A model generated the notes under the pieces. It was given only the letters and a program-made list of their open reading frames with translations, was not told where the DNA came from and searched no databases. From the IMG/VR virus record IMGVR_UViG_2563367158_000002: a DNA stretch of 35,353 bases; one strand, given 5' to 3'. Position numbers and translations under genes: made by a program. Shown one piece after another: positions 1,935 through 28,740 of the stretch (its first letter is position 1; the number at the start of each line of letters is the position of its first letter). The stretch comes from a virus (taxonomy: Duplodnaviria > Heunggongvirae > Uroviricota > Caudoviricetes).

Positions 1935-3098
1935 TCACTCATCATCTTCTGTTTCATACTCCACATCAGAAAGCCTGACCTCAAGCTCTAAGGACGTCGT
2001 GAAGCCGCTATTATTCAGAAAATGTGTCACCTTAGTGATTGTCCAGTCCTGCTCGTCTATGACGCGCTTAAAGCCTGACACTTTGACCGGTGTTTCCGTG
2101 TAAATATCTGCCCGACCGGTAGCCAGGCTGATGGAGAACTCCGCTACACCCCGTTGCAGTTTATCCCACTTCGCCTGAGCGGCGCGCATGGCCTGCGCTT
2201 TCGTGGCATATACCGTGGTCAGGGCAAAAACGTTATCAGCCTCACCGGCCATGTATTCACCTTCGCGCGCTTCCGGTACTTTAGGCGCTTTCTTCTGCCT
2301 GATCGGTTTCGCTTTCGGGTGCTCCAGTGCGCGCAGGTGTTTCTCTTTCTTTTTGCGTTTCAGTTTTACCTTCTGCTTTTGCGGCTTCGGGTCTTTGGTG
2401 TGAAGCCACTTTGCCGTTACGCCGGTATAGGCTCCACGGTCAGCAATCGCAAAATGATGACGGTCTCCGTCGCTGCGGGTGATGGTAATCTGCGGGATTT
2501 TTTTACCGCTGGATGTCACCCCCTGCCCCGCTTTGAGAAACAACAGTTTTCCCATTTTTACCGAGACCTCACCGCCGTTGCGTTCTGCAAGACGGGTCAG
2601 GAATTTCGCATCAGACTCCTGCGACTGGTCGATGTGCGGAATTTTAATTCCGGCCAGTGACGGAGCGACACTGGCTTCCAGCCTGTTACGGGAGGCTATC
2701 GCCTCAACAATCGCACCGAGCGTGGTGTCATGCCATGAGCCTTCCCGGCGGGAATTGAGCGTCCCGCGAAAATCTGCACTCCGGGCACGGATGGTGACCA
2801 CATCCGGCGCGCCCCGGTGTTCAACCTCATCAACGGTAAATTTCCCTTTGCATACCAGGGCAAAACCTTTCCAGCCGATATACACCGTCAGGACAGCGCC
2901 ACGAACCGGCAGCCCGACCTGCCCGTCGGCATCGTTCAGTTCAATATCAAGCTGGTCAGCCTCAAAGCCCCGGTTATCCGTCAGGGTCATGCTCATCAGA
3001 CGGTCGCTGATATTGCCGGTAATATCCCTGCTGTCGAGCATCAGCATGTAATCCGGCGTCAGCGTACTGCCTGCATCAAATGTCAGCGTATCCAGCAT
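1935..3098 (-). CDS. D: Tail protein D (387 aa)
   Basis: P2 gpD length and sequence (MLDTLTFDAGSTLTPDYMLMLD...); start overlaps the U stop. Confidence 0.93.
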   Translation of the reverse strand: MLDTLTFDAGSTLTPDYMLMLDSRDITGNISDRLMSMTLTDNRGFEADQLDIELNDADGQVGLPVRGAVLTVYIGWKGFALVCKGKFTVDEVEHRGAPDVVTIRARSADFRGTLNSRREGSWHDTTLGAIVEAIASRNRLEASVAPSLAGIKIPHIDQSQESDAKFLTRLAERNGGEVSVKMGKLLFLKAGQGVTSSGKKIPQITITRSDGDRHHFAIADRGAYTGVTAKWLHTKDPKPQKQKVKLKRKKKEKHLRALEHPKAKPIRQKKAPKVPEAREGEYMAGEADNVFALTTVYATKAQAMRAAQAKWDKLQRGVAEFSISLATGRADIYTETPVKVSGFKRVIDEQDWTITKVTHFLNNSGFTTSLELEVRLSDVEYETEDDE

Positions 3099-3577
3099 TA
3101 TCCCGCCCCCGTCATACCCGTGAATTTAGTTGCCATACTGCCCGCCTTACCGATGAGCGATTCCGCCTGTTTACCGATATCGCCATAAAGCGCGGCCAGT
3201 GATTCATCTACGCGGGTAAGTGACAGCGTAAAATCAATTTTCCGAGGTGTGCCGTCGGCAAAGAAAATACTCCCTGTTTCACTCACCCTGCTGATGACAT
3301 ACATGCCGTAAATCATGCCGGTGCCATCCAGCAACGGCCACGCCCGGCCTTCCTCTGCCATCAGCCTGAGCGTGGTCATCGTCAGCTTTCCGCCGGTCAG
3401 TTCGGGATAAAGCACACCGGCAAGCGTGATGTTTTCCTCGCCAACGCCGAGAAACTGGTAGGCATCCCGTTTACCGATACGGGAATTTGACGGCCAGCGA
3501 TAATCAGATTCACGCTGCATGGTCTGGTGTGGCAACGTCTGGCGCATAAAAACAAACATACCTAACGCGAGCATCAT
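3098..3577 (-). CDS. U: Tail protein U (159 aa)
   Basis: P2 gpU length and sequence; conserved position between T and D. Confidence 0.93.
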   Translation of the reverse strand: MMLALGMFVFMRQTLPHQTMQRESDYRWPSNSRIGKRDAYQFLGVGEENITLAGVLYPELTGGKLTMTTLRLMAEEGRAWPLLDGTGMIYGMYVISRVSETGSIFFADGTPRKIDFTLSLTRVDESLAALYGDIGKQAESLIGKAGSMATKFTGMTGAG

Positions 3578-3591
3578 TTTTCGTCACCTCC

Positions 3592-6039
3592 TTAACCGTC
3601 ATGCATCATGCTGGCACGGGCGCGCGCACGTTTATCCCGCTCGTATTTTTCGAGCGCATCCTGTAACTGGCGGTCAAGCTGTGTCCCCGGCGCAGTACCG
3701 CCCGTCAGGTTGATGTGATATTCGTTTTTACTCTGGTCCACATAAGAGCGACCAGCCGGTGCCGTGACCGGCTGATAAGCCTGATAGCCTGCATAAGAGC
3801 TGGTCGCCGGAATATAACCGCCGGTGCCATACGTGGCGGCATGAGTCCTTGCGGCGGTCTGGTCAAGTGTGTCTGACTCTTTGTTGATAACACCGAGTTT
3901 TTCCAGTACCCAGTCAATACCGCTGCGCAGTTTGTTGAACGCATTAAGCGGCAGCATCAGCGCGTCAGCCAGTGCCTGCCCGAACATGACGCCCGTGTCA
4001 CGGCAACGGTTCAGGGTGTCCTGGGTGGCTTTAACCGGGGCAATCAGGTTTTTAAACCACTGCCACGCGGCCTGTAACTTTTCACCCAGCCAGTCAAACA
4101 GCGGCTTAAGTGGCGTGAACAATTCCCCCACCGGCGCAAATGCCGCTTTCAGCCCTTCAACCACACCGCCAAAGAATGCGCTGACAGGCTCCCAGTATTT
4201 ACGGATAAGTAACGCTCCGGCGACAATGGCGGCCACCACGGCCACTACCGGCCAGCTAATCGCCCCGATGGCCGTCATAACGGCACTGCCAACCGTCGTG
4301 AAAATTGCCCCCATTGCGCCTGCTGCAGCGATGATGGCATTGATGCCGGTGATAACCGGCCAGGCTACAAGACCAATTGCACCGATGATGCCAGTAAGCG
4401 CCAGTGCGCCACCGGCAATGATGCCGATGGTTGACGCCAGTGATTTGTTTTTCTGGATCCAGCCGTCGAGTTTTAACACATACTTTGTGGCCGTCTGCGT
4501 GAGATTACGCAGTGCGCCTTCCTGCTGGTCAAACAGGTCTGTCCCCACCGCCTCATAAGCGGACTGAAACTCCTTAAAGTCACCTCCGAGATTGTCCTGC
4601 ATGATATTTACCAGCTCTGCAGTTTTCCCGTCTGAGGCTTTAAACGCAGCGGTCAGTTTGTCCAGCTTTCCGGTTGAGGCGGCAGTCATCAGCACGGCGG
4701 CGGCTGAACTTGCCTCCTCCCCGAAAATGGTTTTCATGTATTCAGCCTGCTGGGCAGTACCGAGCCGGTTTTTCTCAAAACTGGCCTGCATTTCTTTCAG
4801 AATGGTAAATACTGGTCGGGTGTTTCCCTTACTGTCTGAGGTTTTCACACCAAGCTCTTTGAGTGCATCCCATGCTTTTCCCGTCGGTGCCTGCAGGCGG
4901 CTTAACACGGCACGGCTTCCCGTCCCCGCCATTGAGCCTGTGATTTTTGCATCATGCAGCGCCCCGACCATTGCGGCGGTTTCTTCAATGCTGACACCGG
5001 CATTTTTTGCCACAGGTGCGGCATAGGTCAGCGCATCGCTCATGCCGTCAAAATCGGCGGCGGTTTTGTTCATCGTCATGGAGAGAACATCCCCGATATG
5101 AGCGACCTTATCGTTTGAAAGCTGAAAGGCAGATTTCATCCCCATCAGCAGGGCGGCGTTTTCTTCCATCGTGCGGCGGTTCGCCAGCGCCATATTCAGT
5201 GTAACCGGCGTTGCCGCCTGAATGGCATCAACATCCCCACCGGCTTTCGCAATGATAATCTGCGCACCGGCTGCATCATCTGCCGAGGCTGCGGTATTGT
5301 CGCCGAGCTGGCGCGCCTGTTTGCGTAATGCGGCCATTTCGGTGGAGTCTTTTGCCACTCCGAGCACAGCCTGTAATTCTGAGTTTTTCTGCGCAAACTC
5401 ATAACCGGGCATCAGCAGCTTAACTCCGGCCATCGTTCCCGCAGCAGCAATCCCCACACCGGCAGCGCCCACTGAGGCCATATTTCCGGCCAGTTCCTTT
5501 CCTGCCTGATAACGCTGTTTGACTGCGTTAAGTTTTGCCTGTTGTGCACTGACACGCGCCAGCGCGTCACGCTGACGGTTAAGCTGTGCGGTGGTTTCAC
5601 TGATACGGTTTTTCAGTCCCTGCTCATCATGTGCAAGATTGCGGGTATTAATTCCCACAACGGCCAGTTCCCGCTGCTGGCGTTTAACGGAATCCGTCAG
5701 GCGGTTATATTTCGCCTGTAAGTCCTCCGCCGCACGCTTTGCGGATTCCAGCACTTTCGCCTGAGCACGGGTCGGTCGTTCGGTATTTTTAAACTGTGTG
5801 GCAAGGGCTTCGGCTTCCTGCCGCGCCTTTTCAAGTGCATGACCAGTCACGGCGAGCTGTGCACTGGTCTTGCGGAACCCCTCAATACGGGATGCGTGAC
5901 CGTTCAGCTCGCGCAGTGATTTTTGTGTTTCCCGGATATCCCCCGACAGCGACTTGCTCGCTGTACGGATGGATTTAAACGGGCGGGATGCCTGGTCAAC
6001 AGCCCTGAGCAATACCTGTAATTTTACATTGTTACTCAT
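3592..6039 (-). CDS. T: Tail tape-measure protein T (815 aa)
   Basis: 815 aa as in P2 gpT; coiled-coil-rich N-terminal region and hydrophobic Gly/Ala-rich central segment typical of tape-measure proteins. Confidence 0.93.
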   Translation of the reverse strand: MSNNVKLQVLLRAVDQASRPFKSIRTASKSLSGDIRETQKSLRELNGHASRIEGFRKTSAQLAVTGHALEKARQEAEALATQFKNTERPTRAQAKVLESAKRAAEDLQAKYNRLTDSVKRQQRELAVVGINTRNLAHDEQGLKNRISETTAQLNRQRDALARVSAQQAKLNAVKQRYQAGKELAGNMASVGAAGVGIAAAGTMAGVKLLMPGYEFAQKNSELQAVLGVAKDSTEMAALRKQARQLGDNTAASADDAAGAQIIIAKAGGDVDAIQAATPVTLNMALANRRTMEENAALLMGMKSAFQLSNDKVAHIGDVLSMTMNKTAADFDGMSDALTYAAPVAKNAGVSIEETAAMVGALHDAKITGSMAGTGSRAVLSRLQAPTGKAWDALKELGVKTSDSKGNTRPVFTILKEMQASFEKNRLGTAQQAEYMKTIFGEEASSAAAVLMTAASTGKLDKLTAAFKASDGKTAELVNIMQDNLGGDFKEFQSAYEAVGTDLFDQQEGALRNLTQTATKYVLKLDGWIQKNKSLASTIGIIAGGALALTGIIGAIGLVAWPVITGINAIIAAAGAMGAIFTTVGSAVMTAIGAISWPVVAVVAAIVAGALLIRKYWEPVSAFFGGVVEGLKAAFAPVGELFTPLKPLFDWLGEKLQAAWQWFKNLIAPVKATQDTLNRCRDTGVMFGQALADALMLPLNAFNKLRSGIDWVLEKLGVINKESDTLDQTAARTHAATYGTGGYIPATSSYAGYQAYQPVTAPAGRSYVDQSKNEYHINLTGGTAPGTQLDRQLQDALEKYERDKRARARASMMHDG

Positions 6040-7046: not shown

Positions 7047-8237
7047 TTAATTGCTGTTAACCGAGGTGACCAGATTTGCCAGATATTTATCGGTGATACG
7101 CTGGCGCAGAGTCAGGTTTTCGAGAGGAGGCACCGGGGTATAGTCGTAGTCGATATACAGTTTTCCGGCCTTGAGGGTTTCCGCATCGTTGGATTCTTCG
7201 CTGAACCAGCAGGTCGCATCCACGATATAGCCGTTTGTTTTCAGCTCACGGAATTTGGCATTGATGCCGTCAACGATGTCGCGAATCAGCGTTGCGGTGA
7301 TGGGCTTGTCCACCGCCCACATGTGCGCCTCAGCCATCGTGTCGGCCATCACCTGCGCGGTGCGGGTGTAGTTTTCAAAGAGGAACAGCGGGTCATCAGA
7401 GCAGGTACGGTTACCCCAGAATCGGAAACCGTCGCGGCGAATCAGCGTAGTGACGCCTGACTCGTTAAGCAGGTCAGCATCGGTGCCGGACTCCTGCAAA
7501 TCCCAGAATACAGATGCGCTGATGCCGGTAACACCGTTTACCCCGACGTTGGACAGCGTTTTATGCCAGCCCTGCTCCTGGTCGATTTTAGCGCGCAGAC
7601 CCAGCGCACGGGCGGTGGCATACGCGGTGGCGGTGGTACTGGTGACCGTATCCCATGCGAGGAAATCCGGCCAGATGACCATCAGCTCACGCTGGCTGAA
7701 ATTCTGGCGATAGGCTTTCACCTCGGAAATGGTCTTACAGCCCCATGCGCTGATATATCCGAAAGCGCGCAGCTTCTGACAGACGGATGCCAGTGCAACA
7801 GCCACCTCTTTGGTATCCAGTCCCGGCACACCGAGAATACGCGGTTTAACACCGGTTACCGACTCCGCCGCCAGCAGGGCTTTTAGTCCGGTGTACTGAC
7901 CGTTTTCGTCGGTGGTGCCGATGATATTGGAAACGGTCTGCGCGAGTTTCGTTTCCTCGTCATCACCGGTGCCGTCTTCCACGCGCACGACAACGGTGAC
8001 CGGTTTTGACTGGTCACCGATGGCCTGCAACGATGCCGCCAGCGTGCCTTTTTTACCGGCCTTTGCAATTGCGCTCTGCACATTGGTAATCAGCACCGGT
8101 TTATTGAGGGGGAAGGTTTCCGCATCCGCATCGCTGGCCGTGCAGACCATGCCGACAATGGCAGTGGATACGGTGGAAATGACGCGGGTGCCGTCGTTAA
8201 TCTCCAGCACCTGCACGCCATGATGATAGTCACTCAT
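7047..8237 (-). CDS. FI: Tail sheath protein FI (396 aa)
   Basis: Start set at the internal ATG giving MSDYHHGVQVLEINDGTRVIS... (P2 FI N-terminus, 396 aa) with ggag RBS; the 445-aa ORF in the track is an N-terminal extension. Confidence 0.9.
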   Translation of the reverse strand: MSDYHHGVQVLEINDGTRVISTVSTAIVGMVCTASDADAETFPLNKPVLITNVQSAIAKAGKKGTLAASLQAIGDQSKPVTVVVRVEDGTGDDEETKLAQTVSNIIGTTDENGQYTGLKALLAAESVTGVKPRILGVPGLDTKEVAVALASVCQKLRAFGYISAWGCKTISEVKAYRQNFSQRELMVIWPDFLAWDTVTSTTATAYATARALGLRAKIDQEQGWHKTLSNVGVNGVTGISASVFWDLQESGTDADLLNESGVTTLIRRDGFRFWGNRTCSDDPLFLFENYTRTAQVMADTMAEAHMWAVDKPITATLIRDIVDGINAKFRELKTNGYIVDATCWFSEESNDAETLKAGKLYIDYDYTPVPPLENLTLRQRITDKYLANLVTSVNSN

Positions 8238-8342
8238 CCGTTTAACTCCGTGGTTAATGGGTGAGTGATATTTTCTGTTGTGCAGAGCATGAGACGCTAT
8301 TTGACCTGGCTGGTCAGTGGATGAAACAACAGATAAAGAAAA
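8238..8342 (-). promoter_or_regulatory. Region expected to hold the Ogr-dependent late promoter for FI-FII-E-T-U-D
   Basis: Position only, by analogy with the P2 late operon structure; I could not identify a convincing activator box by eye. Confidence 0.35.
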
Positions 8343-8361
8343 GGCGGGCAATCCGCCCGCC
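8343..8361 (-). terminator. Rho-independent terminator (GGCGGGC-loop-GCCCGCC then TTTTCTTT on minus strand)
   Basis: 7-bp GC stem with 5-nt loop followed by a T-rich run in the minus direction, between the cargo gene and the FI promoter region. Confidence 0.6.
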
Positions 8362-8551
8362 TGTCCTGATTTGTACTCACTCATTTTCCGACTGACTATT
8401 TAGATAGCCGAAACGCTATCAAATCTGACAGTCTGCTTTGAGCGAGAAGCGGAAGTCTCGGTCTTATTATGTTCTGAGACTAGAAGGTATTTCTTAAGGA
8501 TGATTATTCGTTACGCCTACATATAATAGAAACAGAAATTTAAAGTTTAAA

Positions 8552-8579
8552 TCTAGGTATCTGGCTAATGATACCTAGA
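8552..8579 (-). terminator. Perfect 10-bp inverted repeat hairpin (tctaggtatc / gatacctaga) downstream of the 455-aa cargo gene
   Basis: Perfect palindromic stem with 8-nt loop, followed on the minus strand by T-rich sequence, about 40 nt after the cargo gene stop. Confidence 0.5.
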
Positions 8580-8617
8580 TTGAATTTGAATCATATTTTG
8601 TTAGTTAACTTTAACTA

Positions 8618-9985
8618 TTATCTTTCTCCAACATCCTCTTCTAAAACATGATCTATCTTATCTACAGGAAGATTATCATACTTAGAAAAATCAAAACCAT
8701 CGGGAAGTTTATTTTTTGCTGCTTTTAATATTCTTATTGAATCGTTACCGTTTCTAGAGCGATTTCGCCAATAACATTGATTGTTTTTGTTTGCTCCTTC
8801 AAGCAGGGTTAACATTTGCTCGCTTGAGTAATTAGCCAAGTCTTTGTCAATAAATCTATCAAAATATATATCGGCTCGTTCGAAATCAGCGCTGTTTATA
8901 AAACAAGCAATTCCAAAATCGCGATACTCTGATTCCAAACCTAATTCGCTGCAAACATTTTTAAAAATTGCCAAATGTTGCTGGTTAAGAAAATTTCCAT
9001 TATCTCCGTATTTTTTGTAATATTTTTCAGATATTCTTTTTGTTACGCGATTAATGTGTTCCTCCGGCGATTCAGATATAAAAAAGGCTATTCCAAAATA
9101 AGATATGTTATCTTTTATAATAGGTTTTATGAGTTCTTTTACTGAATCATCCAAGGCGTTATATATTTCTTTCTCCATGGAAATGAACTCAATTAGTGCC
9201 TTAATTGCATCATGGTTATTGGAAATATTGGAGTAATAAGCAGTTTCTGCTTTAACCGAGTCCACCATGGCTTGCCTGTCTTTTTCAAATATCAGTTTCA
9301 TAGCTCTGATATTTATCTCTCTATTTTCTAATGGCTTAGCTTCTTCAGATCTAAACGAAAACTTCCACAACCCCTTGAATATCTTAACTAATACTTCCTT
9401 GTTTAAAGATTTGAAATATTTAACATCTAAGTATTTTTTAAGCGCGTTATCGGAAGGGAATAGGTCCTTTACCTTTTCTAGATCTGCAACAAATGTGGAA
9501 AGTATTTTTTGAGACATAAATGGCGGCTTGCTTAATATTACTTCTATACTATTCCTAATGTCACTTCTAATCATTTCCTGTGTTGGCTCGAATAACGTAT
9601 CTTCGTCACTTATTACTGGATGGGCAGATAAATGCCTGTGTTTTTGAATAAGTAAAACTTTATGGTTTGAAGCAGTGTCTAATAATTGAGTTCTTTCAAA
9701 AACTCTTTTAATAAGCTCTTTTTCCCATTTAGGAGAGTAAGGATCATCGTTTTGTAGTGCTTCAATTTCTAATAATATCTTTTCCGCAACAGCATCGTTA
9801 TGAACATCTCGCAGTTCTTGGAGCTTAAAAATAATATCACATACAACTACTGACCATAGCATCACGGTAGCAGAACGGTAACAACCATTAGCATAGCTCT
9901 TATAAACCTCTTCAAAATATTTTCTAGTTCTTCTATCATAAATTTTACTCTTCTGAGATTCTAATGAGAATATTCTAACGTCCAT
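8618..9985 (-). CDS. Cargo protein at the P2 Z/fun slot, 455 aa, with HEPN-like Rx4H motif (candidate abortive-infection or exclusion protein)
   Basis: Long ORF in an AT-rich island between G and FI; ATG with GGAG RBS; motif R117-H-L-S-A-H122 (plus strand 9620-9637) near the end of a roughly 130-aa helical N-terminal region; no Walker A motif. Whether it is a homolog of P2 Fun(Z) cannot be decided without alignment. Confidence 0.8.
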
Positions 9986-10282
9986 AATTTCTCCATGAAA
10001 AAATATTTAACTCAAGTAATTGAATATGAATCATGTAGTCATAAATACTTCAAAATTATATTTTTAGCCCACTTAAAATTCATACAAAACTTCTTTAATA
10101 AACTGATTCAGGTCTCATGCATTATGCTTTTAACAAACTATCCTAACCTTCATAGTATAAATCTTGATGTTCAATTTTACAATACGCCAAGTTTCCGTAA
10201 ATCAATGAATGCGTCGGATTTTACAATAATTTAAAAGAGATGTTGAATAGTATCCATGAAGTGTAAGGTTAATATACCCAAA

Positions 10283-10306
10283 ACGTCCGCCTCTGGCACA
10301 GAGCGG
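10283..10306 (-). terminator. Terminator-like hairpin downstream of G (gtccgcctctg / cagagcggac, then GTTTTGGG on minus strand)
   Basis: GC-rich stem with one bulge followed by a U-rich tract in the minus direction, about 65 nt after the G stop. Confidence 0.5.
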
Positions 10307-10369
10307 ACTGTCAAATTAGGCTTTACTCTGTGCCATAGATATGTAAGCTCCTACCAGAGCTCATACAAC

Positions 10370-10897
10370 TTATTGCGTCATTTCCGGCCATTCAGGATTT
10401 GTAGGATCCACACGACTGACCAGAACGCTGTAGCGTTCCCAAGCCTCCAGCCGTGTGCGCTCCTCCTCTGTTGCCATGTTCAGCCTGACAGCACGCTCTA
10501 GCGGCAAAATCACGGATTCAGCATCTGCAAGAAGTCTGGCTTTCCGGTTTTCTGCCTGCAGTTGCAATTCCTCTGCCGTATAAATTCGTTTGATCACTGT
10601 GCCATCCTTAAACATCCAGTTCCCTGAAATGTCCGCCCGTCGGTTAGCAGTAATATCCGCCACTTCAACAACACTTAATCCATCCGGTCTGATAGCTGTC
10701 ACATCCTTTTCCACATAGCGGATGATATTATCTTTGTCGTACGCTATTTTTATCGTGTCATCAGCAAAATACTTTTGTTCTTCGTACCAGTTCTTACCAT
10801 CTTCTGAAAAAAACCAGACAACATCAAAGTTCTTTGTCAATTGATATTGTTCAACCGTTTTTGGATTACCCGCCGTAATATTTTTTAAATGCTGCAT
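10370..10897 (-). CDS. G: Tail fiber assembly protein G (175 aa)
   Basis: P2 gpG length; MQHLKNI...[14 protein letters not shown] and C-terminal [11 protein letters not shown] recognised. Confidence 0.9.
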
Positions 10898-10900
10898 AAA

Positions 10901-13150
10901 TTATACCTGCGCCACGTTATACCATGTCCCGTTAATGTATTTCTGCACCGGTCTGTAATATACGCCACCAATGTTATCGGCAGAGTTTGAGCCGGTATCC
11001 TGAACAATAATGCCGGTATATACGCAACCTGACGGAGCCTGATGCGTCCATGTAGTACCATTATTTGCTGGTTTATATGTAGATGCACCGCCCAGTCGCA
11101 TGTCTCTCACATAACGTGAATCTGACTCAGCTTTGGTGTATGCACCAACATCTCCCGCTGAGGGTTTATGAGCAGTTGTATATAGTTGCGCCCATCCAGA
11201 CCAGTTAGCATCTGTGGTATCTCGTCGGGAGCGAATATATGCCGGAGCATGAGCACCGCTGGTTCCACTCCAGCCAATAAGTAACTCACCCTCTCCTACT
11301 GCGGTTACGCCAGTGAGATGAAGCACATTACCATAGGCTGTTGGGTAGCCATTGTTGTATGCCTCATACATCTGAATACCTGGTGTACCCTTTGAGCTCC
11401 CACCTAATGCAGTAACACGGTTTCTGGATACCAGTGTATTAATATTTATATCGGCAGAACCATCAAATCTGACACCATTAATATTTCTTGCGTTCGCTAA
11501 CTTCGTTGCTGTTGCAGCATTTCCTGAAAGGCTGGAAATAAATGGATGTGAGCAGTAATAACCGCGCCCATTTTTAAAATCCAGAATAGCCTGTGCGTTC
11601 GTGCTTTCTGTAGCGGGATTAGTTGCCCCCCACTTATATGTCGTTTGACCGACGACATAATCCTCTGTCGGAACAATAACCGTTAGCCCTTCCTCTGCAA
11701 GAATTTGCACAGGGAAAGCTCTGGCTTCAACATAAAAAACACTACATACATCATCATCTTTCAGGCTTGTAACAATGGAATGGATTGAACGCTCATTGGT
11801 CTGATACGTCCAGAAATAACCTGCCGCATATGAACCACGATCAGTCCATCCTCCGGGCATAACCATGCCATTAAACTCGCAGTTATTCATTACATAATCG
11901 CCGTTATAACAACCAGTGGAAATAACGACGCGGGATGCCATTTCTCCTGAAAGGCTGGCAGCACGGCGAAAGATAACGGGATACCACTTCCCGGCAACGA
12001 CATTTGCAGGGGCTGCAAACGAATACTTTCGCATTCCCTTTTTCTTATCCACTTCACCTTTGCTGTAAACATTAATGTTACTCAGGAAGCGTTCTTTATC
12101 AGGAATATCCGCACCGTTCTGATCTTTCTGAAGACGTTTTTCAGCATTGTCATTGGCAGACTTCACCGCTTTTGGTGTTGCGGCCAGCGTTTCAGAATCA
12201 CTGTTGGTGGCGCTACTTAGCTGGACAAGACCTTTTCGAGCTGTGGTGGCATCCTGTGCAGTGTATTTCCCGTTAGCAAGGTCATACGCTGTCTTAACCG
12301 CCTTTGGCGTTGCGGCCAGCGTTTCAGAATCGCTGTTGGTGGCACTACTGAGCTGAACAAGGCCTTTTCGCGCGGTGGTGGCGTCCTGCGCGGTGTATTT
12401 GCCATTAGCAAGGTCATATGCTGTCTTAACTGCCTTCGGCGTTGCTGCGAGCGTCTCAGATTCGCTGTTGATGGCACTACTTAGCTGAACAAGACCTTTT
12501 CGCCCCGTGCTGGCGTCCTGAGCGGTATATTTTCCGTTAGCAAGGTCATATGCGGCCTTTACCGCTTTCGGCGTTGCGGCCAGTGTTTCAGACGTGCTGT
12601 TGGTCGCACTGCTTAACTGAGTAAAACCTTTTGCGGTCAGCGAGGCGTCAGGGTGACGTCGTGACTGTTCGTGCTCTGCAATTTTGTCATCAACGTAATC
12701 CTGCGTCGCCATCACCGTTGTGGTGTCAATGGTCAGCTCCACTGAGGCCACACTGCTGACGATGATGACCATGCGGCAGGTCTGCGAACGCCCTGAGCCT
12801 TCGGCAAGAGCTGGCTTATAACTTTCGGCCATGTTCGCCACGGCAATTAACGTTCCCGCATCATCGTACAGGCCAAGCTCACGCATCCAGAAACCGCCCA
12901 CCTCCGGCGGAATAACCAGCTCTGCGATAATATAATTACTGTTTCGTTTGTCCTGACTGATTTTGTTCAGCGCATGTCGCCAGACTTCGTGGATAAGCCC
13001 GGTCTGTCCGGCATCCGGGACAGGCAATTTACCACCGCCATCCCCGACGGCCATCGTGGTAATGTTGACCTTCCGCCCTCCCGGTGCGGTTGCCGCTGCC
13101 AGCTTTGCTGCACCGGCAGTGGTGATAACGGTTTTGAATTTTGTGCTCAT
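10901..13150 (-). CDS. H: Tail fiber protein H (749 aa) with internal tandem repeats
   Basis: N-terminus MSTKFKTVITTAGAAKLAAAT... as in P2 H; about 80 aa longer than P2 H (669 aa as I recall) because of four 44-aa fiber repeats; Gly/Thr/Ser-rich receptor-binding C-terminus. Confidence 0.9.
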   Translation of the reverse strand: MSTKFKTVITTAGAAKLAAATAPGGRKVNITTMAVGDGGGKLPVPDAGQTGLIHEVWRHALNKISQDKRNSNYIIAELVIPPEVGGFWMRELGLYDDAGTLIAVANMAESYKPALAEGSGRSQTCRMVIIVSSVASVELTIDTTTVMATQDYVDDKIAEHEQSRRHPDASLTAKGFTQLSSATNSTSETLAATPKAVKAAYDLANGKYTAQDASTGRKGLVQLSSAINSESETLAATPKAVKTAYDLANGKYTAQDATTARKGLVQLSSATNSDSETLAATPKAVKTAYDLANGKYTAQDATTARKGLVQLSSATNSDSETLAATPKAVKSANDNAEKRLQKDQNGADIPDKERFLSNINVYSKGEVDKKKGMRKYSFAAPANVVAGKWYPVIFRRAASLSGEMASRVVISTGCYNGDYVMNNCEFNGMVMPGGWTDRGSYAAGYFWTYQTNERSIHSIVTSLKDDDVCSVFYVEARAFPVQILAEEGLTVIVPTEDYVVGQTTYKWGATNPATESTNAQAILDFKNGRGYYCSHPFISSLSGNAATATKLANARNINGVRFDGSADININTLVSRNRVTALGGSSKGTPGIQMYEAYNNGYPTAYGNVLHLTGVTAVGEGELLIGWSGTSGAHAPAYIRSRRDTTDANWSGWAQLYTTAHKPSAGDVGAYTKAESDSRYVRDMRLGGASTYKPANNGTTWTHQAPSGCVYTGIIVQDTGSNSADNIGGVYYRPVQKYINGTWYNVAQV
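12152..12646. repeat. About four tandem copies of a 132-bp (44-codon) repeat inside H
   Basis: Nucleotide repeats visible by eye; protein repeats ...RKGLVQLSSA(T/I)NS(D/E)SETLAATPKAVK(T/A)AYDLANGKYTAQDA... Confidence 0.85.
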
Positions 13151-14944: not shown

Positions 14945-15570
14945 AGAGGACTCCCGGTTGTGCCGCCGCTGTCGCCGGGGTGTTTATGGGTATGCAGTAC
15001 CTTACCGTTTGATGAGAGTTCACCGCCGGTGTGTTCAATGTTGCCGTGCATCGTCCCGCCCTTCTGCACTTCCAGCGTGCCGGTAATCAGCCTGTTGGTG
15101 CAGACGACCTCCGGTGTGTCCAGGGTGATGCGGGTTGACGCTTTCACCATGACCACCGGCACCGTGGCAGTAACAGAATCAGAAGCCGTCACGCTGGCCG
15201 TTTTAATTCCGCTTACCGTGAGTGCACTGGTTTCGGGGTCATACTCAATCACCGCCCCGTCAGGGAAACGGATATGCAGGGCATCCGCCGACGCAGACGG
15301 CGCGGGGTTATCGCCGGAATAAATCCCCGGCAGAACGAACGCCGTGTCGAGTTCACCGCCCACGGACAGAATCAGCACCTGTTCCCCCACGGAAGGTGCC
15401 CACCATGTGCGCGAACGACCGGCGCGCTGGGTCAGCCACTGCAGCCAGTCGGTGCACATGCCGCCGGTCTGCACACGGCAGCGACCGGCATTAAGGTCGG
15501 TTTCGACGATAATGCCAGTGCGAATCATATTGCGTATAAAGCGAAGAATTTCATTGTATTGTGCATTCAT
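14941..15570 (-). CDS. V: Baseplate spike protein V (about 209 aa)
   Basis: Start at the internal ATG giving MNAQYNEILRFIRNMI...; the 235-aa ORF in the track begins at an upstream TTG; exact start uncertain. Confidence 0.88.
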   Translation of the reverse strand: MNAQYNEILRFIRNMIRTGIIVETDLNAGRCRVQTGGMCTDWLQWLTQRAGRSRTWWAPSVGEQVLILSVGGELDTAFVLPGIYSGDNPAPSASADALHIRFPDGAVIEYDPETSALTVSGIKTASVTASDSVTATVPVVMVKASTRITLDTPEVVCTNRLITGTLEVQKGGTMHGNIEHTGGELSSNGKVLHTHKHPGDSGGTTGSPL

Positions 15571-15656
15571 TCGATAATAATGATTCTGTACAATCTCGAA
15601 GTAAATCACACCACGATTTCTGGTGCACAGAACAACAAGGGACAACAAAATCCATT
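15571..15656. promoter_or_regulatory. Divergent control region: expected late promoter for V-W-J-I-H-G (minus) and promoter of the antisense cargo gene (plus)
   Basis: Position only; contains the dyad CACCA-N7-TGGTG (15609-15625) and a TACAAT-like hexamer (15588-15593). Confidence 0.35.
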
Positions 15657-16730
15657 ATGAGTACTTACTTTTTCTCGTCAGAAACAATGAAAGAATTGTT
15701 CAAAGATTATCTGGTCTTTTTGAACACGCTGACTCCCAGCACAAACTTTGAATCAAACAGAAACAAAATAATTGCTCAAGCAATAAACTTCATTTCCGAA
15801 AACCCTGAAGATTGGGACAAAAAATCCCAGTACAACATTGCTATGATTGGCGACACCTTTAAAAGTTTCTTAAGAGAAAAGGGGGAAGATAACAACAGCA
15901 TCAACCTTATATTCACTTGCTTTTTTAGATTTATCATTGAACCAAGCATTCTCTCTCCGGAAATAGAGTCTCACTTTTCACCACTAAGAACCATCAAGGA
16001 TTTTGCTCTGTATAACTATAATGAATTCGATGAGCGGAGCAGAGCACAGATAGACTTTTCTCTTAGAGAACTGCCATTAGCAATGGTTAAAGAAGTTTTA
16101 AGCTCCAGCAATGTTGACACATATAAAAAATACATTGATAGTTTAAACGAAGGGCGTCAATTTTTCGAAAAGTGCGACTCCTTCTTAAAGGAGCAACATG
16201 CCAAAATAGAGTCAATTAAAGAGTCATTAAAAGGGTATGAGGTCGCATTTAATTTTGTTGGATTGTTTGATGGCTTTAATTCACTTGGCAAAAAGAAAGA
16301 AAGTGAAATCATGCTATCAAGAATAATTCTTATCATCTTGGCTATAATCATTCCCTCCCCACTGATATACTATGGAATGCATAAATTACCAACTCTCGAA
16401 ACGACAAATGCTGCCACATATTTTATGTCAGCACTACCTTTTGCATCAGTTACATTGATTTTCATGTATTACTTTAGAGTTGTACTGATAAATCATATAT
16501 CGTTACGAACTCAGATTATGCAAATAGAACTCAGAAAGAGCCTTTGTCAGTTCATTCAGAGTTATAGCGACTATTCCTCAGAGATAAGGAAAAACAATCC
16601 GGAAGCGCTTTCAAAATTTGAAGACGTAGTATTTTCAAACATCATGCTATCCGATGATAAGATACCATCTACATTTGATGGTATTGAACAAATAGCATCG
16701 TTAATCAACGCATTGAAAAATGGCAAGTAA
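15657..16730 (+). CDS. Cargo protein at the P2 orf30 slot, 357 aa, membrane-anchored, unknown function
   Basis: AT-rich ORF on the strand opposite to the late operons; start at the ATG (15657) downstream of the V start, since the track's 389-aa version begins at a GTG overlapping V; two hydrophobic segments (IMLSRIILIILAIIIPSPLIYY and ATYFMSALPFASVTLIFMYYF) after a roughly 230-aa soluble N-terminal region; own terminator. Confidence 0.8.
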   Translation: MSTYFFSSETMKELFKDYLVFLNTLTPSTNFESNRNKIIAQAINFISENPEDWDKKSQYNIAMIGDTFKSFLREKGEDNNSINLIFTCFFRFIIEPSILSPEIESHFSPLRTIKDFALYNYNEFDERSRAQIDFSLRELPLAMVKEVLSSSNVDTYKKYIDSLNEGRQFFEKCDSFLKEQHAKIESIKESLKGYEVAFNFVGLFDGFNSLGKKKESEIMLSRIILIILAIIIPSPLIYYGMHKLPTLETTNAATYFMSALPFASVTLIFMYYFRVVLINHISLRTQIMQIELRKSLCQFIQSYSDYSSEIRKNNPEALSKFEDVVFSNIMLSDDKIPSTFDGIEQIASLINALKNGK

Positions 16731-16734
16731 TGAT

Positions 16735-16764
16735 AAAAGGCCAATAACTGGCCTTTTATTTATT
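16735..16764. terminator. Bidirectional rho-independent terminator (aaaa-GGCCA-ataac-TGGCC-ttttatttatt)
   Basis: Hairpin flanked by an A-run and a T-run; sits between the convergent cargo gene (plus) and S (minus). Confidence 0.7.
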
Positions 16765-16833
16765 AACGTAAAGATTCAAAATAAATCATACTAAATCAAA
16801 TAATTTCATTCTTATATTCTCAGATCAATAAAG

Positions 16834-17286
16834 CTAGCGATTCAGGTGAGCCAGAATAATCTCTTCAATCATCTGCACATCCTCACCGGTAAAGCCGAGC
16901 AGAGGACGCGCCGGATAATCAATTTTCTTACCGTCTTTCCGGGTTTCTTCCGACAGACCAAACTGATGCACACTGGCGATTTTCGGTGACTTCCCGCCGT
17001 AAAATTCCATTGCTGCCTGTTCCGGGCTGGCGCGGATATGCAAAAAACGACTGGTGATAAGTTTCGCAAACATTTTTCGCTTAACGCGACCGGTCTTTTT
17101 TCTGGCGCTCTGCTGCTGGCGTGGCGCGTAGGGTGTGCCGTCCGGGGCTTTCTGTGCCATCACCCGACGCTGCTGACTCTGCCGCAGACGTTTCGCCAGT
17201 TCGGCACTCAGTCGCCGACGCCCTGACGGTGACAGCGACTCAATCAGTCCGGTCAGCCGGTCTTCAAAACGCTTAAACTCATTCAT
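16834..17286 (-). CDS. S: Tail completion protein S (150 aa)
   Basis: P2 gpS length and sequence. Confidence 0.93.
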   Translation of the reverse strand: MNEFKRFEDRLTGLIESLSPSGRRRLSAELAKRLRQSQQRRVMAQKAPDGTPYAPRQQQSARKKTGRVKRKMFAKLITSRFLHIRASPEQAAMEFYGGKSPKIASVHQFGLSEETRKDGKKIDYPARPLLGFTGEDVQMIEEIILAHLNR

Positions 17287-23207: not shown

Positions 23208-24980
23208 ATGACCATCACCACAGACACCACTCTTTTACACGACCCGCGTCGTCAGGCGGCGCTGCTGTACTGGCAGGGGTTTTCCGTGCCGCAGATTGCC
23301 GCCATGTTGCAGATGAAACGCCCGACGGTGCAGAGCTGGAAACAGCGCGACGGCTGGGACAGCGTTGCCCCCATCAGCCGTGTCGAAATGAGTCTGGAAG
23401 CGCGGCTGACCCAGCTCATCATCAAACCGCAGAAAACCGGCGGTGACTTCAAGGAAATTGACCTGCTGGGACGCCAGATTGAACGACTGGCACGGGTAAA
23501 CCGCTACAGTCAGACCGGCAACGAGGCAGACCTTAATCCGAACGTTGCTAACCGCAACAAAGGCGGGCGTCGCAAACCGAAAAAGAATTTTTTCAGCGAC
23601 GAAGCCATCGAAAAGCTGGAGCAGATTTTCTTTGAGCAGTCTTTCGACTATCAGTTGCACTGGTATCGTGCCGGGCTTGAGCACCGCATCCGCGATATCC
23701 TGAAATCCCGCCAGATTGGCGCGACGTTTTATTTTTCCCGTGAGGCGCTGCTGCGCGCCCTGAAAACCGGTCATAACCAGATTTTTCTGTCGGCCAGTAA
23801 AACGCAGGCGTATGTGTTCCGCGAATACATCATCGCCTTTGCCCGTCTGGTTGATGTTGACCTGACCGGTGACCCGATTGTCCTGGGCAATAACGGCGCA
23901 AAACTGATTTTTCTCGGCACCAACTCCAACACCGCGCAGAGCCATAACGGCGACCTGTACGTCGACGAGATTTTCTGGATCCCGAATTTTCAGGTACTGC
24001 GTAAAGTGGCATCAGGTATGGCCTCACAGAGTCACCTGCGCTCGACCTATTTCTCCACCCCGTCCACGCTGGCGCACGACGCCTATCCGTTCTGGTCGGG
24101 TGAACTGTTCAACCGGGGACGCGCCAGCGCCGCCGAACGCGTGGAAATCGACGTCAGTCATAACGCCCTTGCCGGAGGTCTTCTCTGTGCGGACGGCCAG
24201 TGGCGGCAGATTGTCACCATTGAGGACGCCCTGAAAGGTGGCTGCACTCTGTTCGACATTGAGCAGCTCAAACGCGAAAACAGCGCCGACGATTTTAAAA
24301 ACCTGTTCATGTGTGAATTTGTTGACGACAAGGCGTCGGTGTTCCCGTTTGAGGAGCTGCAACGCTGCATGGTCGACACGCTGGAAGAATGGGAAGACTA
24401 TGCACCGTTTGCCGCCAATCCGTTCGGCTCCCACCCGGTATGGATTGGTTACGACCCGTCACACCGTGGCGACAGCGCCGGATGCGTGGTGCTGGCACCG
24501 CCGGTGGTGGCCGGTGGCAAATTCAGAATACTTGAGCGTCACCAGTGGAAAGGCATGGACTTTGCCACCCAGGCGGAATCCATCCGCAAACTCACCGAAA
24601 AATATAACGTCGAATACATCGGGATTGATGCCACCGGCCTCGGTGTCGGCGTGTTCCAGCTCGTGCGCTCGTTCTATCCCGCCGCGCGCGATATCCGCTA
24701 CACGCCGGAAATGAAAACCGCAATGGTGCTCAAGGCAAAAGACGTTATCCGCCGTGGCTGTCTGGAATATGACGTCAGCGCCACCGACATCACCAGCTCG
24801 TTTATGGCTATCCGCAAGACCATGACCAGCAGCGGACGCAGCGCCACCTATGAGGCCAGCCGCAGCGAGGAAGCCAGCCACGCCGACCTCGCCTGGGCGA
24901 CCATGCACGCCCTGTTAAATGAGCCACTCACCGCCGGTATCAGCACCCCGCTGACATCCACCATTCTGGAGTTTTACTGA
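23208..24980 (+). CDS. P: Terminase large subunit P (590 aa)
   Basis: Start at MTITTDTTLLHDPRRQAALLYWQG...; the track ORF begins at an upstream TTG; stop TGA overlaps the Q start (TGATG). Confidence 0.93.
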   Translation: MTITTDTTLLHDPRRQAALLYWQGFSVPQIAAMLQMKRPTVQSWKQRDGWDSVAPISRVEMSLEARLTQLIIKPQKTGGDFKEIDLLGRQIERLARVNRYSQTGNEADLNPNVANRNKGGRRKPKKNFFSDEAIEKLEQIFFEQSFDYQLHWYRAGLEHRIRDILKSRQIGATFYFSREALLRALKTGHNQIFLSASKTQAYVFREYIIAFARLVDVDLTGDPIVLGNNGAKLIFLGTNSNTAQSHNGDLYVDEIFWIPNFQVLRKVASGMASQSHLRSTYFSTPSTLAHDAYPFWSGELFNRGRASAAERVEIDVSHNALAGGLLCADGQWRQIVTIEDALKGGCTLFDIEQLKRENSADDFKNLFMCEFVDDKASVFPFEELQRCMVDTLEEWEDYAPFAANPFGSHPVWIGYDPSHRGDSAGCVVLAPPVVAGGKFRILERHQWKGMDFATQAESIRKLTEKYNVEYIGIDATGLGVGVFQLVRSFYPAARDIRYTPEMKTAMVLKAKDVIRRGCLEYDVSATDITSSFMAIRKTMTSSGRSATYEASRSEEASHADLAWATMHALLNEPLTAGISTPLTSTILEFY

Positions 24981-26014
24981 TGAGCAAGAAAAAAGGGAAA
25001 ACACCGCGACCTGCGGCAAAAACAATCACCGCCAGCGCCCCGAAAATGGAAGCATTCACCTTTGGCGAGCCGGTGCCGGTACTCGACCGCCGTGACATTC
25101 TGGATTACGTCGAGTGCATCAGTAACGGCAGATGGTATGAGCCGCCGGTCAGCTTTACCGGTCTGGCAAAAAGCCTGCGTGCTGCCGTGCATCACAGCTC
25201 ACCGATTTACGTCAAACGTAATATTCTGGCTTCAACGTTTATCCCGCACCCGTGGCTTTCCCAGCAGGATTTCAGCCGTTTTGTGCTGGATTTTCTGGTG
25301 TTCGGTAATGCGTTTCTGGAAAAGCGTTACAGCACCACCGGTAAGGTCATCAGACTGGAAACCTCACCGGCTAAATATACCCGTCGTGGCGTGGAGGAGG
25401 ATGTTTACTGGTGGGTGCCGTCCTTCAACGAGCCGACAGCCTTCGCGCCCGGCTCCGTGTTTCACCTGCTGGAGCCCGATATTAATCAGGAGCTGTACGG
25501 CCTGCCGGAATATCTGAGCGCCCTTAACTCTGCCTGGCTGAATGAGTCGGCCACGCTGTTCCGCCGCAAGTATTACGAAAACGGCGCACATGCCGGATAC
25601 ATCATGTACGTCACTGATGCCGTGCAGGATCGCAACGATATCGAAATGCTTCGCGAAAACATGGTGAAGTCGAAAGGCCGCAACAACTTTAAAAACCTGT
25701 TTCTCTATGCCCCGCAGGGGAAAGCCGACGGCATTAAAATTATCCCGCTCAGTGAAGTGGCAACGAAGGACGATTTTTTTAATATCAAAAAAGCCAGCGC
25801 CGCTGACCTGCTGGACGCGCACCGCATCCCCTTTCAGTTGATGGGCGGCAAGCCGGAGAACGTCGGGTCGCTGGGCGATATTGAGAAAGTGGCAAAGGTC
25901 TTTGTCCGCAATGAGCTTATCCCGTTACAGGACAGGATCCGCGAGATAAACGGCTGGCTCGGTCAGGAGGTCATCCGCTTTAAAAACTACTCACTGGACA
26001 CTGACAACGGCTGA
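24980..26014 (+). CDS. Q: Portal protein Q (344 aa)
   Basis: P2 gpQ length and sequence. Confidence 0.93.
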   Translation: MSKKKGKTPRPAAKTITASAPKMEAFTFGEPVPVLDRRDILDYVECISNGRWYEPPVSFTGLAKSLRAAVHHSSPIYVKRNILASTFIPHPWLSQQDFSRFVLDFLVFGNAFLEKRYSTTGKVIRLETSPAKYTRRGVEEDVYWWVPSFNEPTAFAPGSVFHLLEPDINQELYGLPEYLSALNSAWLNESATLFRRKYYENGAHAGYIMYVTDAVQDRNDIEMLRENMVKSKGRNNFKNLFLYAPQGKADGIKIIPLSEVATKDDFFNIKKASAADLLDAHRIPFQLMGGKPENVGSLGDIEKVAKVFVRNELIPLQDRIREINGWLGQEVIRFKNYSLDTDNG

Positions 26015-26201: not shown

Positions 26202-26326
26202 CGCCCGCTTCATGGGGCGGTTTTAATGCAGTTGCATGAGCCCACTATAAGTGCATTAGAACTGGCTGAATGAAGAGACAGCGCTTAATCTAGGAAGATG
26301 CAATAAAATGCAACGCAATGCACTTC

Positions 26327-27025
26327 TTACAACTTCGTCATTGCTGACTCAAATTCATCATTAAATGGCTTAATTTGAGATGATGTTAGTTTTTTTACGA
26401 ACTTTTTTGTTGTTGTTTGAACTACGATTCTACCTTCACCAAGAGCATTCCCCTGGCATTCTTTTACGAACCATTCTTGAGTTACTGATGTGGTAATACT
26501 CATTGGGATCACAAGCGTTAATATATCTCCGTAGTCTTCTAAAACATGCGGTAACTTGCCAGAGATAAGCGTCCTGGGGTTTACCAATATATTCATTGCT
26601 TTATTATTAGAAAATTGCAACACAACTGATTGAATATTACTCCTTACTTTTCTTTTGTTTGTTATGGTTATTGATATTGCTGTATCTGTAGTGCTAGGTA
26701 AGTACATTGATGGCATTAACACCATGCTATATCGAATAGCAATTTCTTCTGAATTTTCCTTTAGCGAACGGTGTGCTAACAACAATGATGTCGCAACAGC
26801 AGAAAATGCCCCCACCCCAGAAACCCAAGTACCCAACATGGTCAAAAAAGGTATTGTAATTAATTGGTATTTAGTGTCACCATTCAAACCAACACCACTA
26901 TAACCCACGTAACACCCTATAAAAAAGAATAGACAAGCCGTTATTAAAAAAAATAATAAATGCATAGAACTTATATTTTTAAATTTCAGCAACAAACCTC
27001 TTAAAATATATTTGCATCTCTTCAT
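26327..27025 (-). CDS. Cargo membrane protein B at the tin/old slot (232 aa, or 212 aa from an internal ATG), unknown function
   Basis: AT-rich ORF; basic N-terminus then two hydrophobic segments (LLFFLITACLFFFIGCYVGY and ITIPFLTMLGTWVSGVGAFSAVATSLLL) and a roughly 140-aa C-terminal domain; start uncertain (27025 or 26965). Confidence 0.7.
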   Translation of the reverse strand: MKRCKYILRGLLLKFKNISSMHLLFFLITACLFFFIGCYVGYSGVGLNGDTKYQLITIPFLTMLGTWVSGVGAFSAVATSLLLAHRSLKENSEEIAIRYSMVLMPSMYLPSTTDTAISITITNKRKVRSNIQSVVLQFSNNKAMNILVNPRTLISGKLPHVLEDYGDILTLVIPMSITTSVTQEWFVKECQGNALGEGRIVVQTTTKKFVKKLTSSQIKPFNDEFESAMTKL

Positions 27026-27123
27026 TTTCTAATCTCACATTAAAATCAGACACCAATTTTTGCTAGTCACTATTTTTATGATTGCCAGCATAAATGCTGG
27101 CATCTTTATCATTCTGGCACAGT

Positions 27124-27855
27124 TCACTCACTTATAATTGATACAACCTCACCTGTTTCTACATTGACACGCGCAGCAATCGTCTGTTTCACCACTCCGC
27201 CATAAGCATTAGTTCCGCGAAACGTGGTTTTCACAATGGCATGCGGGTCTTTATTCAAAATCAGATGATATACCGTTGACACATGTTTATAAGATGAATC
27301 ATCGTTCATATTATCTTTAATTAGTTTTTCCAATGGACGATAAGAACCATCCCAACCACTAAAATTACTCTGAAATGTATCAAGATTGATTTTATTGTTT
27401 AGTGACTTCGGGTCATTTTCATAATCATTAAAGCACCACCCAAGAACATCACCGAGTTTCAACTCATCATCTTTGGTAAATGTATACTCACTCATGCAGG
27501 CATAAAACGCATCTGACGCGGCGGCTGGAACTTCCTTAAAATCAATGTAACTATTCACAATATCGTGTCGTGTTTTCTTTGACTCGTTCCGATATTCCTT
27601 GAGTGTTTTTTCACCATATTCGAATGTTTTTTGGACTTTGTGTTCTGCAACGGTTGATGTTTCAGTTTTAGCAACTGGCTGGCTTTTTTCTGTTGGATAG
27701 AGTATTGAACCAATTATGCTCAATACAAAACCACCTCCGAGATAAACCGCACTTGCACGTTTGCGGTTTGGCATTCGCACCAGTGATGGCCTGATTAACC
27801 CGATGAAGAAAGCAACGAAAAAAGCGAGTGATAGAAAAGCGATTATAGTATCCAT
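27124..27855 (-). CDS. Cargo membrane protein A at the tin/old slot (243 aa), unknown function
   Basis: Start at the ATG with AGGA RBS (aaaaaggatagctATG); two hydrophobic segments (IIAFLSLAFFVAFFIGLI and AVYLGGGFVLSIIGSILY) separated by an RKR loop, then a roughly 180-aa soluble domain; AT-rich. Confidence 0.75.
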   Translation of the reverse strand: MDTIIAFLSLAFFVAFFIGLIRPSLVRMPNRKRASAVYLGGGFVLSIIGSILYPTEKSQPVAKTETSTVAEHKVQKTFEYGEKTLKEYRNESKKTRHDIVNSYIDFKEVPAAASDAFYACMSEYTFTKDDELKLGDVLGWCFNDYENDPKSLNNKINLDTFQSNFSGWDGSYRPLEKLIKDNMNDDSSYKHVSTVYHLILNKDPHAIVKTTFRGTNAYGGVVKQTIAARVNVETGEVVSIISE

Positions 27856-28078
27856 AGCTATCCTTTTTGCATCATCCACATAAAAAATCGACCTCATGTT
27901 AGCAACAGGATGCTTACTTTTGAATATTTGTAAGTTGTTAGCTCTCCAACCTAACTCTTTTCAACCGTCAAAAACCAGCACCAACGCAGTAAAAATATGT
28001 CTGTCAACTAACGCCTCGCTTCGCTCGTTGTTCAACCCCGCCAGCCCTGAAAACAAGTTTCACGACTGGCGGCGTTCT

Positions 28079-28285
28079 CTATCGTCTGCGTGGTGGTGGC
28101 GCAACTCTGGACTGACCGATATCGTTAAACCGTCTGTAATTATCCCGGACTATTTCGGCACACCCGACCAACTCGTCAGGCGTCAGATTTTCGTTGAGCA
28201 TAATCTGCTGTAGACGGTGAACAATGGCCATCAGTTTGATATTTTTAGTTTTATGGTGCGGTATCTCGCCTGGTATTCTGTGCAT
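28079..28285 (-). CDS. Small basic protein (68 aa), translationally coupled to the upstream ASCH-like gene
   Basis: Its ATG overlaps the stop of the preceding gene (TAATG); MHRIPGEIPHHKTKNIKLMAIVHRLQQIM...APPPRRR; no recognisable family; may be non-coding. Confidence 0.4.
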   Translation of the reverse strand: MHRIPGEIPHHKTKNIKLMAIVHRLQQIMLNENLTPDELVGCAEIVRDNYRRFNDIGQSRVAPPPRRR

Positions 28286-28740
28286 TATCCAAGCCACCCA
28301 TTTTGCTTTGCACGCTCCACCTGTTCATCTGAATAGTTCCATATCCCATCCGTAGCAACCACTGCCCCGCCAGACATCCCCGTCTCTGGTTCATACATAA
28401 CAGCAAGGCCGAGCTGATGCATAATTTCATGATTAATTCTGAATACCAGACCACGTTCACTAAGTTCTTTCCAGTTCACAATCTTATATGCGCCCGTATT
28501 AAGCAGCTCAATACTTAGCAAGACATAATCTTCCAGCCAGTCTGACAGGTCAGTAACATCTGTTATCCGGGCTTCAACCTTTCGCCCCGTAAACACACCC
28601 TGCACCCATTCATGCAAAATCAGCGTGTCCCCGCGCTCATAATTACGGTCATTTTTCCGAAACTCTGCGCGTTTCTTTCCTTCCAGCACAAGGTCAAAAT
28701 ATTTGGCGTGCAGCTTTACCTCGTGAATTTTTGCCATCAT
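28285..28740 (-). CDS. ASCH/PUA-like (DUF3850-type) domain protein with C-terminal HExxH motif (about 151 aa)
   Basis: N-terminal pattern IHEVKLHAKYFDLVLEGKKRAEFRKNDRNYERGDTLILHEW resembles ASCH/DUF3850 from memory; C-terminal HEIMH (plus strand 28417-28431); its ATG overlaps the A stop (ATGA), suggesting co-translation in the early operon. Confidence 0.7.
   Translation of the reverse strand: MMAKIHEVKLHAKYFDLVLEGKKRAEFRKNDRNYERGDTLILHEWVQGVFTGRKVEARITDVTDLSDWLEDYVLLSIELLNTGAYKIVNWKELSERGLVFRINHEIMHQLGLAVMYEPETGMSGGAVVATDGIWNYSDEQVERAKQNGWLG

Follow-up and report, generated by a model that had tools for sequence, protein, structure and literature searches.

A cargo gene at the Z/fun position of a P2-like prophage encodes a protein identical to the defence ribonuclease DARNA (PD-T7-3)

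Introduction

P2-like prophages carry accessory genes between their essential operons, and the question raised by the locus described here is what occupies the AT-rich gap between the tail genes G and FI of one such prophage, and what that cargo would do in an infected cell. The fun position is the second defence hotspot of P2-like phages and held three of the systems found by Vassallo et al. (2022, Nat Microbiol, PMC9519451). The DNA under study, called the window below, is the whole 35,353-nt stretch of IMG/VR record IMGVR_UViG_2563367158_000002 (Caudoviricetes), an essentially complete P2-like prophage lying on the minus strand. An initial annotation of the window had described the G-FI gap as an AT-rich island with a single large gene, and had read the 455-aa product as a HEPN-like RNase of the kind found in abortive-infection proteins. 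Our analysis followed up that reading with profile, structure, homolog and genome searches.

Results

The island and its gene

The features of the locus are collected in Table 1. The FI-G intergenic span, from the start of FI to the stop of G, was exactly 8238-10369, and its GC content was 0.33, against 0.50 for the window, which bore out both the AT-rich island and the limits given for it. The neighbors were identified by their domains, FI by tail sheath Pfam domains and G by Caudo_TAP, and the slot is that of Z/fun in P2. One long ORF was present in the island, on the minus strand, and it corresponded to the single 455-aa gene that had been described. Two plus-strand ORFs of 79 aa (9995-10234) and 81 aa (10256-10501) were taken as chance ORFs of AT-rich DNA; they are unannotated in the records that were inspected. 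Scanning 8200-10450 in both orientations against Rfam (E <= 1) returned no match, and thus neither an RNA antitoxin nor a riboswitch.

Table 1. Coordinates of the features in the window (positions 1 to 35,353)
Feature	Position	Strand	Basis or remark
DARNA / PD-T7-3 / 'Dandelion' CDS	8618..9985	-	455 aa + stop codon; ORF list, PADLOC, PDB, AJ512676
N-terminal HEPN RNase domain, aa 1-159	9509..9985	-	
Catalytic Rx4H motif RHLSAH, codons 117-122	9620..9637	-	sole Rx4H; conserved in homologs
All-helical ssDNA-sensor domain, aa 160-455	8621..9508	-	PDB 9wwz residues 156-455; function from preprint
RBS GGAG, 5 nt before ATG	9991..9994	-	read from sequence
Predicted sigma-70-like promoter TTTACG, 16 nt, TAAAAT, ~190 nt upstream of ATG	10174..10201	-	consensus scan
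12-bp hairpin, 34 nt past stop, weak U tract	8547..8584	-	inverted repeat I2; dG -19.3, z -5.9
GC-rich intrinsic terminator, stem 8342-8362 then UUUUCUUUAU	8332..8362	-	terminator scan; dG -20.1, z -4.8
G-proximal arm of imperfect flanking inverted repeat	10270..10400	.	gapped local alignment; AJ512676 'left inverted repeat'
FI-proximal arm of flanking inverted repeat	8360..8470	.	gapped local alignment; AJ512676 repeat_region
Minimal cassette recurring outside P2-like prophages, ~99% identity	8430..10309	.	homology end points, SCZE5 + F2_407_2_2
Prophage gene order, left to right	tape measure 3592-6039, E, FII, FI 7047-8237, G 10370-10897, H 10901-13150		
Further along the same prophage	portal 24980-26014, gpA, Cox, C, integrase		
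Second-island ORFs, co-directional	26327..27025 and 27124..27897	-	232 and 257 aa
Third-island ORF, antiparallel to late genes	15561..16730	+	389 aa; phrog_9373 (unknown function), E 4e-134

Identity of the gene

The window protein matched the PADLOC model for PD-T7-3 (PDLC04108) over its full length (E = 3e-168, 558 bits), with protein residues 5-440 aligned to profile positions 3-429 of 432. In a sequence search against PDB entries, it proved identical at 455 of 455 residues to 9wxf (9wxf_A), deposited under the name 'Dandelion' with 12 chains; the companion entries 9wx2 ('Dandelion-hepn', residues 1-158) and 9wwz (residues 156-455) hold the HEPN part and the C-terminal domain. The literature searched contained no publication on the protein under the name 'Dandelion'. 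Scans of the 455-aa protein against Pfam, NCBIfam and PHROGs gave sub-threshold noise only; it is the PADLOC and PDB matches that keep the gene from passing for an orphan. RefSeq labelled it 'hypothetical protein' in all genomes that were inspected (WP_001703208.1, WP_061330190.1).

A tblastn search of phage records returned one match, 100% identical, to ORF1 of GenBank AJ512676 ('Bacteriophage P2-EC30 proviral Z-region, ORF1'). This record (2187 bp, 2003) aligned to window positions 8208-10399 with 18 mismatches in 2185 bases (~99% identity); the five differences that fall within the 455-aa ORF are silent, as the encoded protein is identical. The upstream part (10079-10399) differed by 4 mismatches and a 2-nt indel, none of them in the predicted -35 and -10 hexamers. 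The CDS annotated in AJ512676 starts 48 nt upstream of the ATG of the solved structures, an extension permitted by indels in the old record. AJ512676 belongs to the study of Nilsson et al. 2004 (Mol Biol Evol 21:1).

The strain that yielded PD-T7-3 was ECOR30 (contig QOXP01000001, RCP48690.1), with an ORF of 1368 nt and flanks of 444 and 371 nt in the cloned fragment (PMC9519451, Table S2), and the system was labelled 'HEPN' in Table S1 of the same study. It was renamed DARNA (ssDNA-Activated RNase) in a February 2026 preprint by Puteikiene, Vassallo, Laub, Sasnauskas and colleagues (bioRxiv 10.64898/2026.02.22.705581). The window protein is identical and AJ512676 comes from ECOR30, the source of PD-T7-3; on these grounds, the gene in the window is the PD-T7-3 type member, located in the prophage slot it came from. 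By the identity of its sequence, the gene is DARNA, a defence protein already published and structurally solved, and finding it here is a rediscovery.

HEPN domain and catalytic motif

The initial annotation had placed an Rx4H motif at R117-H122, and RHLSAH was indeed present there, the only Rx4H and also the only Rx4-6H motif in the 455-aa protein. A search of 5.8 billion proteins at E <= 1e-3 yielded 314 homologs, from sources that included Aeromonas, Providencia, Shewanella, Vibrio, Pseudomonas, Myxococcus and Paenibacillus. Conservation was read from an alignment of 41 sequences at 34-91% identity, in which R117 and H122 were invariant and H118, L119, S120 and A121 were at least 90% conserved. 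A fold test found the all-alpha helical bundle of a HEPN domain, in which a core helix ends in the motif; in the model, the helices reach residue 151. The helical, HEPN-like character of the N-terminal region was upheld, but its size was not, as the domain comprises about 159 aa according to the preprint, rather than about 130. The Pfam HEPN profile gave no match, and the only Pfam hit was DUF6559 at a sub-threshold E of 0.023; the domain is too diverged for sequence profiles. Its membership in the HEPN superfamily thus rests on fold, motif and solved structure, not on a Pfam profile.

The catalytic assignment of R117 and H122 agreed with the published motif R117x4H122 of the identical protein, in which H122A is inactive. 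The abortive-infection role was likewise borne out by publication, as that protein has been described as aborting infection through tRNA cleavage. A clone under its native promoter challenged with phages, the H122A mutant and a fold search, all of which had been suggested as checks, had already been published. Three outcomes had been named beforehand as refuting the HEPN reading; fold and motif conservation both came out in its favor here, and a phenotype is provided by the published work.

C-terminal sensor domain

The initial annotation saw no recognisable motif in the C-terminal ~320 aa; the last ~300 aa are by now known to be an ssDNA-sensing domain. According to the preprint (bioRxiv 10.64898/2026.02.22.705581), the domain resembles Pds5 and binds 'CT' dinucleotides via F368, D372, Q403 and W406, and inactive mutants include H122A, F368A, W406A, R98E (alone or with K201E/K204E) and the triple mutant F6A+N33A+E347A. 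The window protein carries all four 'CT'-binding residues, the RNA-binding residues R98, K201 and K204, and the other mutated residues (F6, N33, H122 and E347) at the same numbers.

In the 41-homolog alignment, Q403 was invariant, D372 was kept in 39 of 41 sequences, and F368 was F in 36 and Y in 5. W406, a residue that the E. coli protein requires and that stacks on ssDNA (same preprint), was kept in 21 of 41. Because of this partial retention, the details of ssDNA recognition might not hold family-wide; they may differ across the family, and homologs without W406 may read another ssDNA motif. At residue 406 (window 8768-8770), W was replaced by G in 10 of the 41 homologs.

Expression signals

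The RBS that had been claimed for the gene was found as GGAG just before the ATG, and the terminator hairpins as two stems 3' of the stop codon (Table 1), the GC-rich one lying just upstream of the FI promoter region. A third small hairpin (8443-8460) was not significant (z -0.87). The predicted promoter coincided with the -35 and -10 elements annotated in AJ512676 when these were mapped to the window, and it lay inside the fragment whose ECOR30 counterpart defends 'from its native promoter'. Between G and the start of DARNA (9986-10369), a scan of the minus strand found no terminator-like hairpin, whereas in P2 the V-operon terminator stands right after G. Since the gene runs in the same direction as G with no terminator between them, late V-operon transcripts could read through into it.

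Flanking repeats and copies elsewhere

The island is flanked by an imperfect inverted repeat of about 100 nt, which was found by gapped local alignment and was missed by a repeat finder with default seeds. Aligned to the reverse complement of the FI-proximal arm, the G-proximal arm scored 52, a value reached by none of 300 shuffles (19.8 +/- 3.5). Aligned as direct repeats, the two flanks scored 18, below the mean of 21 for shuffles, and such a relation was rejected.

Among 5426 complete E. coli genomes, only 14 contained at least 80% of the island. The whole span with both flanks was matched in two of them (H1 and H2), and in H1 the gene lay between tail sheath and tail fibre assembly genes; in other carriers, only the core 8430-10309 was shared. 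In four genomes (H3, H6, H7, H11), the match was split by, or adjoined, an IS3-family transposase. E. coli SCZE5 carried a copy of this core cassette in a Rac-like lambdoid region and F2_407_2_2 a copy in an island adjoining IS2; the copies spanned 3001-4902 of locus L005 (Rac-like lambdoid, flanked by IS1) and 2993-4868 of locus L006 (island adjoining IS2). The cassette ends in short inverted repeats, AGTCYGCTTTG / CARAGCRGACT, and includes its own promoter and the first hairpin, with the GC-rich terminator (8342-8362) outside it. We regard it as possible, if rather doubtful, that the ~1.9-kb DARNA cassette is autonomous and that a site-specific mechanism, using the repeat arms as recombination sites, moves it between the P2 Z/fun slot, Rac-like lambdoid prophages and IS-rich islands. 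If so, the defence hotspot would in effect be an integron-like acceptor.

Other cargo of the prophage

A second AT-rich island (26300-28000, GC 0.35-0.40) adjoined the portal gene, in the old/tin slot of P2, which is defence hotspot #1. Its 232-aa and 257-aa ORFs had no match in PADLOC, Pfam, NCBIfam or the PDB and matched only PHROGs without assigned function (phrog_23429/16957 and phrog_3403). This island may be an uncharacterised two-gene defence cargo. At its edge, just downstream of gpA, a 162-aa protein with ASCH/DUF3850 and DUF7415 domains was encoded at 28285-28773 (-). A third AT-rich island (15500-17000, GC 0.34-0.38) lay within the late region, and its 389-aa ORF likewise had no match in PADLOC, Pfam, NCBIfam or the PDB. 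The tail fibre protein H (749 aa) was longer than P2 H (2010 nt, ~669 aa) and contained three to four tandem units of ~44 aa (…KGLVQLSSATNSDSETLAATPKAVKTAYDLANGKYTAQDATTAR…).

Discussion

Our findings indicated, with very high confidence for the explanation as a whole, that the island represents defence cargo, a cassette with DARNA as its single gene that occupies the Z/fun slot of this P2-like prophage, and no observation spoke against the identification. This analysis itself showed that the sequence is identical, that the motif is present and conserved, that the N-terminal domain has a HEPN fold, and which slot and expression signals belong to the gene; the dodecamer, tRNA cleavage, activation by ssDNA and SSB, and the phage range come from the literature on the identical protein. 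In the preprint (bioRxiv 10.64898/2026.02.22.705581), DARNA protected against T3, T5, T7 and T4, escape mutations lay in the phage SSB, a protein that made DARNA toxic even on its own. Most tRNAs were cut in their anticodon loops, as mapped from RNA-seq ends. The direct activator in vitro was ssDNA, with phage SSB enhancing and E. coli SSB inhibiting activation. Cryo-EM in the same work showed a homododecamer with HEPN domains at aa 1-159 and active sites occluded by loop 81-85.

Applied to the window, these results suggest the following course of events. DARNA would be made constitutively from its own promoter and would assemble as a homododecamer, in which the N-terminal HEPN domains would pair to form six composite R117/H122 active sites, blocked at rest by loop 81-85, while the outward-projecting C-terminal helical domains would bind ssDNA bases at 'CT' dinucleotides. 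In an uninfected cell, host SSB would sequester ssDNA. Upon infection by T3, T5, T7 or T4, phage SSB would displace host SSB and present accessible ssDNA, switching on the HEPN RNase, which would then cut the anticodon loops of most host tRNAs, so that translation would stop and the infection would abort. The early region of the prophage contained no recognisable SSB, and we infer that, for want of an SSB of its own, the carrier prophage leaves its cargo untriggered.

The position of the gene invites the reading that it is a diverged homolog of P2 Fun(Z) that excludes T5 by the Fun(Z) mechanism, and the protection by DARNA against T5 would fit such a relationship, as would the shared G-FI slot. 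However, BLASTP against P2 Fun(Z) (NP_046777.1) found no similarity (best E 1.4, over 26 residues), the gene is oriented opposite to fun(Z) relative to G and FI, and its product is completely identical to a member of a different characterised family. Homology to Fun(Z), which the initial annotation had not claimed, was thus rejected, and we give it next to no credence. The slot itself was confirmed as that of Fun(Z), an equivalence of position only. As far as their sequences allow a judgment, DARNA and Fun(Z) are positional analogues, not homologs. A HEPN domain is not known to take part in the mechanism of Fun(Z).

Instead of cutting tRNA anticodon loops upon activation by ssDNA, a HEPN RNase might act on mRNA or rRNA or serve as the toxin in a toxin-antitoxin pair. 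The island speaks against this, as it holds one ORF with no partner gene and no RNA detected by Rfam, and so does the finding from RNA-seq and in vitro work that the identical protein cuts tRNA anticodon loops upon activation by ssDNA and without a protein antitoxin; we consider such an activity very improbable. It is equally improbable, in our view, that the intact gene is silent or non-functional in the prophage, a passenger without phenotype. The promoter matched only 9 of 12 consensus positions, and promoter-like sites in this AT-rich DNA (14, against 9.3 +/- 3.3 in shuffles) were barely above expectation, as would suit a silent gene. Yet the CDS product is 100% identical to an active protein, the same ~2.2 kb is covered by the cloned ECOR30 fragment, which confers protection under its native promoter, and the window is ~99% identical to the P2-EC30 Z-region of ECOR30 over the whole span. 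The 99% conservation of the cassette in unrelated contexts also points to selection. Active defence cargo encoding DARNA is the reading that we retain.

Published work on this exact protein already covers the gene and its role in defence, the catalytic residues of the HEPN domain, the structure and the mechanism of activation, and nothing about them is new here. The case has value for calibration, as fold class, catalytic residues, role and genomic logic had been correctly inferred from raw sequence without tools, and for annotation, as the label 'hypothetical protein' stands in RefSeq on a characterised defence protein. The other two AT-rich islands of the prophage are better targets for follow-up than the DARNA gene.

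Comparison with known systems

With published DARNA the window gene shares its sequence, residue numbering and slot (P2-EC30 Z-region); the flanking DNA is ~99% identical, and there are no differences at the protein level. P2 Fun(Z) resembles DARNA in occupying the inter-operon slot between G and FI, in being AT-rich, non-essential lysogenic-conversion cargo and in interfering with T5. Fun(Z) differs in length (528 vs 455 aa) and shows no sequence similarity, and fun(Z) runs antiparallel to G and FI, whereas the cargo gene of the window is parallel to both.

PrrC, ApeA, HepS, Csm6 and HepT share with DARNA an Rx4-6H HEPN dyad across a dimer interface and metal-free RNA cleavage, and several of them are abortive-infection effectors directed at tRNA anticodon loops. 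DARNA is set apart from these proteins by its dodecameric assembly and its Pds5-like helical-repeat sensor domain. Activation differs as well: the HEPN relatives respond to cyclic oligoadenylate, antitoxin loss or restriction-enzyme inhibition, whereas DARNA relies on base-specific binding of ssDNA presented by phage SSB. Retron-Eco8, Hna and AbpAB are similar to DARNA in that phage escape mutations fall in the phage SSB; unlike these systems, DARNA does not bind SSB, and its direct ligand is ssDNA, as reported in the preprint.
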